A stretch of DNA of 53,436 nt, from the NCBI GenBank assembly GCA_964616855.1, contig CAZTUJ010000005.1:1-53436 (forward strand), given 5' to 3'. This document shows positions 48,338 to 53,436 of this stretch, piece after piece. Numbering within the stretch: the stretch's first letter is position 1; every line of letters starts with the position of its first letter. Origin of the DNA: an uncultured Gammaproteobacteria bacterium (lineage in GTDB: Bacteria > Patescibacteriota > Patescibacteriia > Patescibacteriales > UBA12465). The notes beneath the pieces were generated by a model. It worked only from the letters and a program-made list of their open reading frames with translations, searched no databases and was not told where the DNA came from. The position numbers were made by a program, and so were the translations under genes.

Positions 48338-48366
48338 TTGACCCTTGTTTTTTATTCTGCTATAAT
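48338..48366 (+). promoter_or_regulatory. sigma70 promoter of the nrdR-nrdD-nrdG operon
   Basis: TTGACC-17 bp-TATAAT with an extended -10 TG. Confidence 0.8.
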
Positions 48367-48436: not shown

Positions 48437-48895
48437 ATGAAATGTCCAGTCTGCTATTATAACGATACTAAAGTAGTTGACTCCCGCGTTGCTCCCGACG
48501 GCCTTTCTATTCGCCGCCGTCGCGAATGTCTGAAGTGTAATTTCCGTTTTTCTACCTACGAAGAAATTGAAATTTTGGATTTAATGATTGTGAAAAGAGA
48601 CGGTCGCCGGGAATCTTACAGTCGTGAGAAATTAGTTAGTGGTTTACGTAAGTCTTTAGAAAAGAGATCGGTGACCGAGGATAAATTTAAACAGATTATT
48701 CATGGCATTGAACGTGATTTACAGAAGCTGAGGCAAAATGAAGTTACTTCTCGTCAGATTGGGCAAATGGTAATGAAACATTTGAAAAAAACTGATCAGG
48801 TTGCTTATATCCGCTATGCTTCCGTCTATGAATCCTTTAAGGATGCGAATGAATTCCGCCGCGAGCTCAATAAGCTCATCAAGGACAAAAAATAA
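48437..48895 (+). CDS. nrdR: transcriptional repressor NrdR
   Basis: MKCPVC, VVDSR, RRRRECLKC.FRFSTYE, ATP-cone and VAYIRYASVY. Confidence 0.98.
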   Translation: MKCPVCYYNDTKVVDSRVAPDGLSIRRRRECLKCNFRFSTYEEIEILDLMIVKRDGRRESYSREKLVSGLRKSLEKRSVTEDKFKQIIHGIERDLQKLRQNEVTSRQIGQMVMKHLKKTDQVAYIRYASVYESFKDANEFRRELNKLIKDKK

Positions 48896-48985
48896 ATTAA
48901 TATATTGCGGCGATGGCGCGGTTTAAGATCTAAAAACCCAGGAGGCTAGTTTTAGATCTTCAATCTCGCGATCGTTTCGAAACCC

Positions 48986-51037
48986 ATGTCCGAAATAATC
49001 AGCAAAATCCGGAAACGCTCCGGTGACATCGTTGACTTTAGTCAGCCTAAAATCAAGGCGGCTATCCATAAGGCGGCTCTGTCGGTAGAAATTGATGACG
49101 AAGCTCTCTCTCAGCAATTAAGCGATGAAGTGGTAGCGAAAGTTGCGAAGAAGTTTCATAAAAACAGCATTCCGGCAGTTGAAGAAATCCAGGATGTTGT
49201 TGAAGAAGTTTTAATTGAGCACAAGCAGATTAAGACCGCTAAAGCTTACATCTTGTATCGTGATCAACATCGTCAATTACGCGAATTAAACAAGGCTACC
49301 TCTGATGAGAAGTTGATGGAAGATTATCTGGGCCGGGCTGACTGGCGTTTAAAGGAAAACAGTAACATGAGTTTTTCCGTCCAGGGCCTAAATAATTATA
49401 TTGCTTCCGCTATCTCCGCCCGTTATTGGCTAAATAAGCTGTATCCAGAATCTATCAGGGAGGCGCATGTTAATGGCGATATCCATATTCATGACCTTGG
49501 GTTACTTGCTCCATACTGCTGCGGTTGGGATTTAAAAGATTTGTTAATTAAAGGTTTTGGGGGTGTTTCTGAAAAGGTGCAGAGCAAAGCTCCTAAACAT
49601 TTTCGTAGTGCTCTTGGTCAGATTGTTAATTTTTTCTATACCATGCAGGGGGAGGCCGCTGGGGCTCAGGCTTTCGCTAATTTTGATACTTATCTCGCTC
49701 CTTTTATCCGTTATGATAATTTGAGCTATAAAGAAGTAAAGCAGGGTTTGCAGGAATTCATGTTCAATATCAATGTACCGACTCGCGTTGGGTTTCAGAC
49801 CCCTTTTACCAATATCACTATGGACGTCACCCCCTCCAAATTAGTGGGTGAAGAAAATGTAATTATTGGTGGTCAGATGATGCCGGAAACCTATAAAGAC
49901 TTCCAGGCAGAAATGGATATGTTTAATCAGGCTTTTGCCGAAGTGATGTTAGAAGGTGATTCTACGGGGAGAGTCTTTGGCTTTCCAATTCCGACCTATA
50001 CGATTGATAAAACTTTTGATTGGGACCGTGAATGTTTGAAACCGGTGTGGGAGATGACCGCTAAATATGGTATTCCGTATTTTTCCAACTTTGTTAATTC
50101 CGACATGGATCGCGATGACGCTCGTTCAATGTGTTGCCGTTTACGTTTAGATAATCGGGAGCTGAGAAAGCGCGGTGGTGGCCTCTTCGGCGCCAATCCT
50201 TTAACCGGCAGTCTTGGCGTGGTCACCATCAATTTAGCTCGTATCGGTTATGTGGCTAAAAGCAAAGAAGAATTTTTACAAAAGATTTATCGGCTAATGG
50301 ATATTGCTAAAGATAGTTTAGAGATAAAGCGTAAAATTATTGAAAAATTTTCTGATGACGGCCTTTATCCTTATTCTCGCCACTATCTCGCTGATATTAA
50401 AGCTCGTTTCGGCACTTTTTGGCAGAATCATTTCAACACTATCGGTATTAACGGTATGAATGAAGCTCTGTTAAATTTGTTGGGTAAGGATTTAACGACG
50501 CCGGAAGGGCATGCTTTTGCTCTTGAAGTGATGGATGCGATGCGTGAGCGCCTAATGGACTATCAGAACGAAACCAATAATCTTTACAATTTGGAAGCTA
50601 CTCCGGGAGAAGGTTGTACCTATCGTTTTGCCAAGAAAGATTTAGAATTATATCCGGATATGAATTTTGCCAACACCGAAGCGGTAAAAGACGGTGCTGC
50701 TCCTTATTATACTAATTCTACACACTTGCCGGTCGGCTTCTCTGATGATATTTTTGCCGCCTTGGACTTGCAGGATGATTTACAGATTAAGTATACCGGC
50801 GGCACGGTTTTACACGGTTATTTAGGCGAGCGCTTGCCGGATGGCAATGCGGCTAAGAAATTAGCTCAGCGCATTATTAATAATTACCGTTTGCCCTACT
50901 TTACCATTACCCCCACCTTCTCCATCTGTCCGAAACATGGCTATTTAGCTGGAGAACATAAATTTTGTCCGAAATGTGATGAAGAAATGGGCTTTTCCAG
51001 CTCTGAGATGCAGGCTGAACGCTGCTCCACTTGTTAG
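48986..51037 (+). CDS. nrdD: class III (anaerobic) ribonucleoside-triphosphate reductase, large subunit lacking the glycyl-radical loop
   Basis: N-terminal ATP-cone, IHIHDL, finger loop SMCCRL, GVVTINL, EATPGEG, YYTNST and Zn site CPKH...CPKC. No RVxG motif; ends in CSTC. Confidence 0.95.
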   Translation: MSEIISKIRKRSGDIVDFSQPKIKAAIHKAALSVEIDDEALSQQLSDEVVAKVAKKFHKNSIPAVEEIQDVVEEVLIEHKQIKTAKAYILYRDQHRQLRELNKATSDEKLMEDYLGRADWRLKENSNMSFSVQGLNNYIASAISARYWLNKLYPESIREAHVNGDIHIHDLGLLAPYCCGWDLKDLLIKGFGGVSEKVQSKAPKHFRSALGQIVNFFYTMQGEAAGAQAFANFDTYLAPFIRYDNLSYKEVKQGLQEFMFNINVPTRVGFQTPFTNITMDVTPSKLVGEENVIIGGQMMPETYKDFQAEMDMFNQAFAEVMLEGDSTGRVFGFPIPTYTIDKTFDWDRECLKPVWEMTAKYGIPYFSNFVNSDMDRDDARSMCCRLRLDNRELRKRGGGLFGANPLTGSLGVVTINLARIGYVAKSKEEFLQKIYRLMDIAKDSLEIKRKIIEKFSDDGLYPYSRHYLADIKARFGTFWQNHFNTIGINGMNEALLNLLGKDLTTPEGHAFALEVMDAMRERLMDYQNETNNLYNLEATPGEGCTYRFAKKDLELYPDMNFANTEAVKDGAAPYYTNSTHLPVGFSDDIFAALDLQDDLQIKYTGGTVLHGYLGERLPDGNAAKKLAQRIINNYRLPYFTITPTFSICPKHGYLAGEHKFCPKCDEEMGFSSSEMQAERCSTC

Positions 51038-51131
51038 TTTGTTTTATTTATAAATTTATCTTATAATATATTAAAGGAGAGAGCTTTGTGAACGTTTTAA
51101 GGCCTTCACTACTCTCTACCAAACCAATAAT

Positions 51132-51275
51132 ATGAGCCCCATCACTACTCAGCGCCAAGAATGTATCGTTTATAGCCGCGTTGTCGGTTGGTTGACTCCG
51201 GTAAAAAACTATAATCCTGGTAAAGCTTCAGAGTATAAAGATCGCAAGACTTTTAAGGTTGCTTGCTCAGAATAA
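51132..51275 (+). CDS. stand-alone NrdD glycyl-radical domain (47 aa; not in the supplied ORF track)
   Basis: Translated by hand: MSPITTQRQECIVYSRVVGWLTPVKNYNPGKASEYKDRKTFKVACSE*. It matches the NrdD C-terminal pattern YSR(V/I)xGY.PV..WN.GK..E..DR. Confidence 0.92.
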   Translation: MSPITTQRQECIVYSRVVGWLTPVKNYNPGKASEYKDRKTFKVACSE

Positions 51276-51344
51276 AGTAATTATTGAGAGGAGCGCGGGG
51301 ACAGGGCCGTTGTTTAATCCCGGCTACTCCCTCAAACTCGTCTT

Positions 51345-52073
51345 ATGTTAATTGGCGGTTTAGAAAAATTAACCCTTTTGGACTATCCTGATAATTTGGC
51401 AGCGATTGTTTTCACCCAAGGTTGTAATTTCCGTTGCCACTTTTGCTACAATCCCATGCTTGTCTGGCCCCACCATTCGGAGGCGGCGGACGAAAACCAT
51501 AAAGACAAAGGTTATCCCCTGATTCAGGAGGAAGACCTTTTTCTTTTTTTAGAGGAAAGACGAGGGAAGTTGGACGGCGTTGTTATTACTGGCGGCGAGC
51601 CGACTCTTCATGCCGATTTGCCGGATTTAATTCGTAAGATTAAAGACATAGGCTATTTAGTTAAGTTGGACAGTAATGGCACTAATCCGGAAATGCTAGA
51701 ACACTTAATTTCTGCCGACCTCATCGACTATATTGCTATGGATATTAAAGCTCCTTGGGAAAAATATGAGACGGTTGTTGGTGTTCCTGTAAATTTAGAG
51801 AATTTGCAAAAAAGTGTTAAAATAATAATGGCTAGCGGTCTCCCTTATGAATTCCGTAGCACTTTATTACCAGAGTTCCATACAGCCGCCGATATTGAAC
51901 GCATGGGCGTGATGATTAAGGGCGCTGAGCGCTGGTATTTGCAAAAATTTAAGCCTGACACCGGTTTAGTAGACAGCTCCTTTGAGGGTAAAGATACTTT
52001 TCTGGATAAGGATTTAGAGGCGTTTGCGCTCATTGGCGCTAATTTTGTCAAGGATTGCCGCGCCCGCATTTAA
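51345..52073 (+). CDS. nrdG: anaerobic ribonucleoside-triphosphate reductase activating protein (radical SAM)
   Basis: GCNFRCHFCYN, VVITGGEPT, KLDSNG and IAMDIK; adjacent to nrdD. Confidence 0.95.
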   Translation: MLIGGLEKLTLLDYPDNLAAIVFTQGCNFRCHFCYNPMLVWPHHSEAADENHKDKGYPLIQEEDLFLFLEERRGKLDGVVITGGEPTLHADLPDLIRKIKDIGYLVKLDSNGTNPEMLEHLISADLIDYIAMDIKAPWEKYETVVGVPVNLENLQKSVKIIMASGLPYEFRSTLLPEFHTAADIERMGVMIKGAERWYLQKFKPDTGLVDSSFEGKDTFLDKDLEAFALIGANFVKDCRARI

Positions 52074-52077
52074 TAAT

Positions 52078-52371
52078 ATGGACAATATTACGGAAACTGC
52101 TACCAGTGAGCAGAAAAAAACAGAAAATATCGAGACCAAGGCTCCTGATGATTTAGCTTCTTTGTTGCAGGCTAACTTAGAAATGACCAAGGAGATTCAC
52201 GCAATGGTGCGCCATATTAATAGTTATGTCGCCTGGCAGCGTGTTTTTGGCTGGCTTAAATTTTTACTACTACTTATCCCTCTGATTATCGGAGTTATTT
52301 ATCTACCCCCGCTTTTGCGTGAATACTATCAGCAGCTGGTGCAGTTAATAGCTAATGGTGCCGGCATCTAA
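52078..52371 (+). CDS. small membrane protein
   Basis: ATG at 52078; coiled segment followed by one TM helix (FLLLLIPLIIGVIYLPP). Confidence 0.7.
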   Translation: MDNITETATSEQKKTENIETKAPDDLASLLQANLEMTKEIHAMVRHINSYVAWQRVFGWLKFLLLLIPLIIGVIYLPPLLREYYQQLVQLIANGAGI

Positions 52372-52407: not shown

Positions 52408-53436
52408 ATGAAAGACGAAATCGCAGTCTTTGCGCAAACTACTTTTCGCAATCAATTTAAGAAGTTCGGAATTAAAACTGACGACCGGCGCCGTCACATG
52501 TATTTGATTGGGAAAACGGGTATGGGCAAATCCACCATCCAGGAGAATATGATTGTTGGCGATATTCGCGCTGGCCACGGTTTGGCGGTGGTCGATCCTC
52601 ATGGTGATTTAGCAGAAAAAATTATTGAATTTATCCCGCCGGAACGAGTGAAGGACGTTGTTTATTTTAATCCGTCGGATATGGACTATCCGATTGCTTT
52701 CAATGTCTTAGAGCAAGTCGAGCCGCATTTACGGCACCTGGTTGCTTCTGGTTTATTGGGCGTCTTTCAGAAATTATGGGCAGATTCTTGGGGACCTCGT
52801 TTGGAATATATTTTGCGTAACGCGATTTTAGCGATTTTAGATTTTCCAGGCTCTACCCTTTTAGGGGTGGTGCGTATGCTTTCGGACAAGTCTTATCGTA
52901 AACGTGTGGTTGCTAATATTAAAGACCCGGTTGTTAAAGCTTTTTGGGAGAAAGAGTTCGCTTCTTATGCCGACAAGTTCGCTTCCGAGGCGGTTTCGCC
53001 TATTCAAAATAAAGTTGGACAATTTTTGTCCAGCTCTTTGATGCGTAATATTATTGGTCAGGTTAAATCTTCCATCAATATCCGGGAAATCATGGATGAA
53101 GGTAAAATTTTAATCATGAATTTGAGCAAGGGGCGCATTGGCGAAGATAATTCCGCTTTATTGGGAGCAATGATGATTACCAAAATTCAATTGGCGGCAA
53201 TGAGCCGGGTAGACATGCCCGAGAAAGAGCGCAAGGATTTTTATCTTTACATTGATGAGTTTCAGAATTTTTCTACCGATAGTTTTGCCAATATTTTGTC
53301 CGAAGCAAGAAAATATCATTTAAATTTAATTTTAGCTCATCAATACATTGAACAGTTGAGTGAGAAGGTAAAGCCAGCAGTCTTTGGTAACGTGGGGACG
53401 ATGGTTTCTTTCCGGGTGGGGGCAACTGATGCCGAG
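52408..53436 (+). CDS. VirD4/TrwB-like (type IV coupling protein, HerA-FtsK superfamily) ATPase, runs off the right edge
   Basis: Translated by hand: DDRRRHMYLIGKTGMGKST (Walker A), VVDPHGDL, WGPRLEYIL, LYIDEFQNF (Walker B) and SEARKY. No stop before the window end. Confidence 0.9.
   Translation, partial: MKDEIAVFAQTTFRNQFKKFGIKTDDRRRHMYLIGKTGMGKSTIQENMIVGDIRAGHGLAVVDPHGDLAEKIIEFIPPERVKDVVYFNPSDMDYPIAFNVLEQVEPHLRHLVASGLLGVFQKLWADSWGPRLEYILRNAILAILDFPGSTLLGVVRMLSDKSYRKRVVANIKDPVVKAFWEKEFASYADKFASEAVSPIQNKVGQFLSSSLMRNIIGQVKSSINIREIMDEGKILIMNLSKGRIGEDNSALLGAMMITKIQLAAMSRVDMPEKERKDFYLYIDEFQNFSTDSFANILSEARKYHLNLILAHQYIEQLSEKVKPAVFGNVGTMVSFRVGATDAE

Follow-up and report, generated by a model that had tools for sequence, protein, structure and literature searches.

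Must a class III ribonucleotide reductase (RNR) have its glycyl radical on the same polypeptide as the catalytic barrel? In this class the activase NrdG makes a glycyl radical, and the loop that bears it relays the radical to a cysteine of the finger loop. The question is raised by a stretch of 53,436 nucleotides, hereafter the window (contig CAZTUJ010000005.1 of GenBank assembly GCA_964616855.1, the genome of an ultra-small bacterium placed by GTDB in the Patescibacteriota, UBA12465), in which the nrdD gene stops short of the glycine loop and a 47-residue open reading frame (ORF) downstream encodes it. The analysis below indicates a real, conserved and apparently undescribed variant of class III RNR. 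The ORF list and family profiles place four genes on the same strand, in the order nrdR, nrdD, 47-residue ORF and nrdG, with the following features.

48437..48895, + strand: nrdR, RNR transcriptional repressor (TIGR00244, 188 bits, cut-off 125)
48986..51037, + strand: nrdD, large chain, 683 residues (PRK08270, 1028.7 bits, cut-off 548; TIGR02487, 513.4 bits, cut-off 326)
50132..50137, + strand: Cys383-Cys384 in the finger-loop motif SMCCRL (residues 381-386), from the sequence
50927..50977, + strand: predicted Zn motif, C648-x2-H651 ... C661-x2-C664, from the sequence
51038..51131, + strand: spacer between nrdD and the peptide gene, 94 nt, 27% GC; contains a TTGTTT-N17-TATAAT site and a hairpin, both weak
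51132..51275, + strand: separate glycine-loop peptide, 47 residues (Pfam NRDD positions 530-562 of 562, 28.7 bits, cut-off 26.2)
51162..51164, + strand: Cys11 of the peptide, found in all type-A split peptides matched (137 of 137), with an inferred role
51186..51188, + strand: Gly19 in YSRVVGW, predicted glycyl-radical site (NRDD profile position and RVxG[FWY] fingerprint)
51345..52073, + strand: nrdG, radical S-adenosylmethionine activase of the NrdG2 type, 242 residues (TIGR02495, 207.5 bits, cut-off 131)

The large chain has nearly everything expected of a class III enzyme: an ATP cone, the class III barrel, the SMCCRL finger loop and the Zn motif. Among 17 aligned homologs C384 is invariant and C383 nearly so, and the cysteine motif matches that given for class III finger loops in PMC9669993 (papers are cited here by PubMed Central number, and through their accessible text). 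An AlphaFold2 model of residues 105-683 (predicted local distance difference test 86.6, predicted template modelling score 0.88) contains the ten-stranded barrel, and its best Foldseek matches are class III RNR structures, with a TM-score of 0.80 to 8p2s_B. Family score, finger-loop and Zn motifs, an RVxG loop at the locus and NrdG likewise assign the system to class III. What the chain lacks is the glycine loop. It carries positions 1-530 of the 562-position Pfam NRDD profile and ends 19 residues after the Zn motif; the remaining positions, with the RVxG loop, are on the peptide, in a different frame. Since the glycine loop is not in the barrel's polypeptide, we file the system as a variant of class III RNR and not as a canonical one-chain NrdD. 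A sequence-only reading of the window had described just this arrangement: an NrdD ending shortly past CPKH...CPKC without an RVxG loop, the motif YSRVVGW on a separate, out-of-frame ORF beyond an AT-rich spacer, and an intact nrdG thereafter. All of this holds. Its statement that the glycyl-radical domain is separately encoded is right for the loop and C-terminal tail, but the large chain retains the Zn motif. To judge from their sequences, barrel and activase are intact.

The peptide is identifiable as part of this family and of no other. Only NrdD models match it, at E values up to 0.01 in Pfam and NCBIfam, and its close homologs carry Patescibacteria names (Falkowbacteria, Parcubacteria); a sequence search of the PDB with the peptide alone returned no match. 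A profile search of the window's own genome (952 kb, 100% complete) gave no further NRDD matches. Because the genome's only RVxG loop of this family is thus on the peptide, the enzyme, if it works, very probably receives its radical from the peptide in trans; we regard this as a strong inference. The Trp that follows the glycine, which had been singled out as replacing a usual Tyr, proves to be ordinary: it occurs in 26 of 33 order-level loci, split proteobacterial peptides have Tyr, and the fingerprint of glycyl radical enzymes (GREs) is given as RVxG[FWY] (PMC13450708). Trp was accordingly rejected as a mark of the split. Cys11, three residues before the loop aromatic, is present in 137 of 137 type-A peptides matched (defined below) compared with 18 of 53 one-chain representatives; 54 of the 137 were found without a Cys-containing pattern. 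Cys11 may, as a speculative guess, help to hold the peptide to the Zn site.

Could the split be an assembly error, or a pseudogene in decay? The genome is metagenome-assembled and also encodes an oxygen-using class I RNR, which could meet its need for deoxynucleoside triphosphates (dNTPs). Independent assemblies nonetheless agree with the window. A DNA contig from another study (X4) equals window positions 51001-51151 exactly and covers the nrdD stop, the whole spacer and the start of the peptide, and two RNA-library contigs from one study (X6, 51049-51498; X18, 51081-51231) pass from the spacer into the peptide with no joint and no differences. All three are assembled contigs and not raw reads; a second, read-based search found no further contigs across the nrdD stop. 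The RNA-library contigs cover the peptide and the nrdG start more than nrdD, but those of one study cannot rank genes and this is not used as evidence. As to the misassembly considered in the sequence-only reading, independent contigs match the window and restore no single ORF.

Relatives tell the same story. Within the order NRDD was found in 37 of 40 genomes; the DNA of 33 of these 37 was read, and 32 loci were split and one was one-chain. (Statistics on split loci refer to these 32 plus the window's own.) The comparison with related genomes that the earlier reading had called for thus finds the peptide conserved beside nrdD. Relative to nrdD the peptide gene lies in each of the three frames (12, 12 and 9 loci), its frame is closed in 33/33 by a stop that coincides with the nrdD stop or follows it, and a Met stands 10-11 codons ahead of the conserved Cys in every one. 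Between the peptide core and 13 genus members the synonymous and non-synonymous values (pS and pN) are 0.70 and 0.034, a pN/pS of 0.048, compared with 0.071 for 36 nrdD codons. The peptide is under purifying selection. Complete genomes of cultured species, described below, also show the split, and artefact or decay is scarcely credible.

A subtler alternative is that the genes are split in DNA only, one polypeptide being restored by readthrough, frameshifting, hopping or splicing. The window does offer a formal take-off and landing pair, since the last nrdD codon and the peptide Cys codon are both TGT, and Cys is the last NrdD residue in 9 of the 33 split loci. Overall, however, that residue takes ten different values, spacers range from 18 to 172 nt (29 measured loci) in three frames, and the Met is fixed. 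The RNA-library contigs run through the spacer unskipped, no Rfam match was found at the locus, and the peptide has lone viral copies (below). Hopping, frameshifting, readthrough and splicing were each rejected on the varied spacers, frames and last residues, the fixed Met and the missing Rfam match. Nor is there a sign of a mobile intervening element: the spacer of 94 nt here is 18 nt in one relative, again with no Rfam match. With independent contigs in agreement, relatives split in all frames, the Met fixed and a pN/pS of 0.048, misassembly, decay and any single recoding or splicing route are excluded; we consider a restored single chain highly improbable in any form. Layout, conservation and pN/pS agree that the glycine loop is, as was claimed, a separate, real and conserved gene product.

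How widespread is the arrangement, and how often did it arise? In an even sample of the phylum, collected with the family profile, 44 other genomes had NRDD, 31 split and 13 one-chain. Three cut points are present among the 31. Type A, that of the window, is cut after the Zn motif (22 genomes). Type C (4 genomes: loci L213, L219, L222 and L238) belongs to the same subfamily and is cut within the Zn ribbon, which apparently leaves the final cysteine ligand to the small protein. Type B (5 genomes: L229-L233) involves a distant NrdD subclass, in which a small protein with CxxC is followed by a thioredoxin-like CPKC ORF and then by nrdG; in L229 the two NrdD parts are separated by a ferredoxin-like ORF. 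Three cut points imply at least three fissions. A maximum-likelihood tree was built from barrel columns only, for 29 of 74 aligned rows, under LG+G4 without mixture and with one phage outgroup (the split L223 was left out). It needs at least three changes for type A. The approximately unbiased (AU) test rejects both monophyly of type A (p-AU 6e-10) and types A and C together (p-AU 3e-10), with a one-chain Actinomyces row, added to the constraint after the first tree was seen, allowed in. The split forms are not one clade; the tree does not fix the direction of change. Cys11 became invariant in two separate split clades.

The same layout extends to cultured Proteobacteria. A locus bearing Pseudomonas aeruginosa names consists of a 675-residue NrdD ending past the Zn motif, a 48-residue peptide and NrdG, each protein being present on at least 1000 contigs. 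The nrdDG genes are needed for anaerobic growth of this species, and the accessible text makes no mention of a third gene (PMC5645315). Plasmid pHG1 of Cupriavidus necator H16 (L248:2477-4850) similarly encodes a 676-residue NrdD, a 66-residue 'nrdD' (E6A55_RS33455) and NrdG, and nrdDG are called essential for full denitrification in this strain (PMC2864759). Residue G650 of the C. necator large chain sits in its CPTHG Zn motif, the RVMGY loop being on the small gene E6A55_RS33455. Siedow 1999 is reported to have assigned G650 as the radical site; if that is right, the split was missed in the C. necator work. The three-gene layout recurs in RefSeq/GenBank plasmid records from Azospira, Sulfuricystis, Thiothrix, Sulfuricurvum, Bradyrhizobium and Paracoccus, with the small gene mostly labelled 'nrdD'; two further plasmid records, from Geoalkalibacter and Actinomyces oris, are one-chain. 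The long NrdG of the latter had raised a suspicion that the peptide was fused to it, which is not so, the NrdD itself being one-chain.

Broader scans gave counts that need reading with care. Among the best 80 of 577 loci from a GTDB scan, 79 were split and one lay at a contig edge, the split-type query biasing the result. Two proteobacterial queries had short homologs in 3593 and 4072 clusters, some perhaps fragments. A Zn motif was found in 125 of 150 distant NrdD representatives, considered as proteins and free of genomic context: 53 of these run on into a glycine loop, 45 have a full Zn motif with no loop by pattern (P0523, one of these, nevertheless proved one-chain), and in 27 the chain ends within or at the motif, some perhaps truncated. 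In seven representatives (P0393, P0395, P0396, P0402, P0409, P0508 and P0509) NrdD ends with CPYPH or CPYEH plus a tail and lacks a glycine loop, which may be another split type. Many NrdD representatives are 800-1900 residues long with gaps at fixed places, as inteins would give.

That the split enzyme functions is implied, at the level of gene content, by relatives in which no other RNR was found: among the 32 split relatives, searches with PF02867, PF00268 and TIGR02505 detected no class I or II enzyme in 15, and 14 of those are 90% complete or better. A caveat is that 106 of 151 phylum genomes had no NRDD match, so that members of the phylum may scavenge. The cultured species give stronger functional support than these Patescibacterial RNR counts.

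The peptide also occurs alone. Among the best 80 of 551 viral peptide loci, none had a barrel or NrdG match in the fetched flanks, two cellular controls being positive; these 80 comprise 35 short ORFs with full flanks (33 distinct), 34 short ORFs with partial flanks, 7 longer open frames and 4 that are cut. Ten chosen long viral records, five of them at least 90% complete, were searched whole, and 10/10 gave only the C-terminal match. Neighbouring genes match phage families (DNA polymerase, tape measure, terminase) in 6 of 8 viral loci scanned. Archaeal virus ANMV-1 has a 144-residue stand-alone protein (AJP62049; L035:2686-3120) with two CxxC motifs and an NrdD glycine loop, and no barrel was found among the annotated genes within 3 kb of it. 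A cellular counterpart is present in one phylum genome (G108; L228:625-4137, G108:C2), where an intact one-chain NrdD is followed by an 89-residue copy of the Zn and glycine-loop region and then by nrdG, the two loops being nearly identical. By analogy this extra copy is the YfiD arrangement, and the closest YfiD analogue for an RNR. Neither the lone phage copies nor the G108 spare make sense unless a free peptide is able to join an enzyme already in place.

We lean, at somewhat better than even confidence, towards a two-gene class III RNR in which the peptide likely receives the radical, docks on the barrel and would be swapped after cleavage by oxygen. Going by the mechanism of the family, NrdG very probably abstracts a hydrogen from Gly19 of the peptide, which very probably inserts as the C-terminal loop does in one-chain NrdD; Cys383 or Cys384 of the finger loop would then take the radical from it. 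Since oxygen cuts the backbone at the radical glycine (PMC13450708), only the peptide would be lost: oxygen would destroy 47 residues and not 683, and a fresh peptide would replace the cut one. A detachable form is structurally plausible, the radical domain of the one-chain Prevotella copri NrdD being highly mobile (PMC11226230). Exchange after oxygen damage is, by a modest balance of probability, also the reason for the spread of the split. The lone phage copies, the G108 spare, the repeated origins, the many facultative aerobes among the hosts and the genome's own class I RNR tilt us slightly towards it.

Several observations weigh on the other side. YfiD, the spare part of pyruvate formate-lyase (PFL), relies on a 60-residue N-terminal part to bind and on a safety strand (PMC8683613); the 47-residue peptide has neither, which leaves a free activated peptide with no evident safeguard. 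One-chain NrdD persists in 13 of the 44 phylum genomes. The one-chain A. oris protein (plasmid record, L250:1342-3321) is nested among proteobacterial split forms, possibly through re-fusion. The split is retained in 15 relatives with no detected class I RNR, and so does not track oxygen use within the order. The P. aeruginosa peptide had no match in curated phage genomes, and of four matches to the window peptide there, two of the three read are one-chain and the third is the stand-alone ANMV-1 protein. In several Proteobacteria the small gene is a few bases from its neighbours or overlaps them. Finally, a promoter of the peptide's own was looked for and rejected as unsupported above genome background: TATAAT occurs in 12 of 29 spacers (shuffle mean 6.3, maximum 15 in 1000 shuffles), a rate that comparable gaps in the window's genome equal (79 of 200).

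Much of this is what would be expected if fission were simply tolerated, the radical being carried in trans by a peptide bound for life, with no gain in repair and a split that recurs because the linker is easily broken. Split class II NrdJa/NrdJb and the NrdA-a/b of phage Aeh1 are parallels, one-chain and split forms coexist in the phylum and are nested, and the missing promoter and missing link to class I RNR in the order fit as well. Lone and apparently conserved phage copies, and a second copy beside an intact NrdD, nevertheless imply free entry of the peptide, and the invariance of Cys11 in two separate split clades counts against mere tolerance as well. We judge this explanation rather unlikely, if a serious one.

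Less probable still is that the split serves activation or control and not repair. A free peptide might be an easier substrate for NrdG, or its supply or release (for example with dATP) might set activity, with phages raising the dNTP output of the host. The radical domain must flip out for activation (PMC13450708) and is disordered in P. copri NrdD when dATP is present (PMC11226230); the small gene always adjoins nrdG in the cellular type-A loci read, and a GC-rich hairpin between the two is conserved in 14/14 genus loci. On the other hand, a glycyl radical left exposed on a free peptide would not last long (PMC11226230), and the locus showed no regulatory feature that is particular to the small gene. 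This possibility is improbable on the present evidence.

The non-coding parts of the locus contain one further mapped feature.

48338..48366, + strand: promoter-like TTGACC-N17-TATAAT upstream of nrdR (11/12 consensus matches, extended TG; a consensus match only)

This is likely the operon promoter, going by its match to the consensus. The scan listed no promoter in the spacer. Of the 14 genus loci, 8 keep a TTGTTT-N17-TATAAT site (51039-51067) followed by a hairpin of variable sequence (51077-51118), possibly an internal promoter in one sub-clade only. The spacer hairpin pointed out in the sequence-only reading is present but weak, its -19.9 kcal/mol (z -1.73) being matched in 10 of 200 shuffles, and the 14 genus loci share no consensus structure in the spacer. 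Between peptide and nrdG the GC-rich hairpin (51276-51344; alifold -11.2 kcal/mol), whose sequence motifs are kept in all 14 loci and which has no Rfam match, may limit nrdG expression. A long hairpin between nrdR and nrdD (48905-48985) reaches up to the nrdD start (-30.9 kcal/mol, z -3.58; none of 200 shuffles did as well). Downstream of nrdG are a short membrane-protein-like ORF (about 52078-52371) and an open-ended ATPase gene (52408-53436) with TrwB/DUF87 (HerA-like) matches. The genome's class I RNR (L198:923-3937; G000:C1:215422-218436) has its ATP cone on the 434-residue beta subunit, the 559-residue alpha subunit being without one; compared by description only, the cone resembles the architecture of the PDB 5olk type.

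Were the exchange reading to hold generally, many class III RNRs, those of P. aeruginosa and C. necator included, would be two-chain enzymes with the radical on an exchangeable peptide, an arrangement that arose several times against oxygen cleavage; it would be the first spare-part system outside PFL, and phages would exploit the peptide alone for host dNTP supply. We offer this wider proposal tentatively, as falling a little short of an even chance. The radical glycine of P. aeruginosa and C. necator NrdD would then have been looked for on the wrong chain, and reconstitution of these enzymes would call for three proteins and not two. NrdG could for the first time be studied simply, on a small natural substrate, and phage nucleotide metabolism would gain a 50-residue auxiliary gene. 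The layout makes the question of spare parts beyond PFL directly testable, with a 47-residue synthetic peptide and cultured, tractable hosts. A 2026 review names formate lyases as the only GREs with identified spare parts, others being yet to be determined (PMC13450708).

Our literature search, with RNRdb and most subscription papers outside it, found no published account of a class III RNR whose glycine loop has a gene of its own, and none is described in the accessible text of PMC9669993, PMC9531940, PMC13450708, PMC5645315, PMC10432549, PMC2864759, PMC4493059, PMC3653736, PMC8683613, PMC11226230, PMC2795772 or PMC4390871. Since databases already label the small gene, specialists may have seen the split. 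With one-chain NrdD/NrdG systems (phage T4, 1H78; Thermotoga maritima, 4COI/4U3E; P. copri, 8P23/8P2S; Streptococcus thermophilus, 9D3X) the window has in common the ATP cone, barrel, MCCR finger loop, Zn motif, RVxG loop sequence, NrdG2 activase and nrdR-nrdD-nrdG operon. It differs in that the glycine loop and C-terminal tail are on a gene of their own, NrdD being one-chain in the four organisms for which we found solved structures.

Three other kinds of system invite comparison. In split class II RNR, NrdJa/NrdJb of P. aeruginosa and others, the C-terminal part is likewise on a neighbouring gene (PMC9669993), but that enzyme is B12-dependent and NrdJb is a folded, IscU-like and zinc-finger protein with no stored radical. 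Phage RNR genes in pieces (nrdA-a/b of Aeh1, nrdD fragments of phiAS4, nrdD split by introns or inteins; PMC3653736) also divide the chain; these are sporadic or caused by mobile elements, whereas the window type has no intervening element and a cut point conserved across phyla. Nearest in logic are the PFL cofactors GrcA/YfiD from Escherichia coli and Y06I from phage T4, the precedent for a spare part (PMC8683613), which share the small stand-alone glycyl-radical loop, the occurrence of cellular and phage copies and the proposed mode of use. The 47-residue peptide has no sequence match to GrcA/YfiD and does not belong to that family. YfiD is moreover a 127-residue duplicate that backs up an intact PFL, whereas the window peptide is the only copy and thus a required subunit; only G108 has a true duplicate, and its extra copy and the ANMV-1 protein are nearer to the YfiD arrangement than the window peptide is. 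By analogy, the enzyme of the window would work like an NrdD served by a YfiD-type part, yet one from outside the GrcA family.

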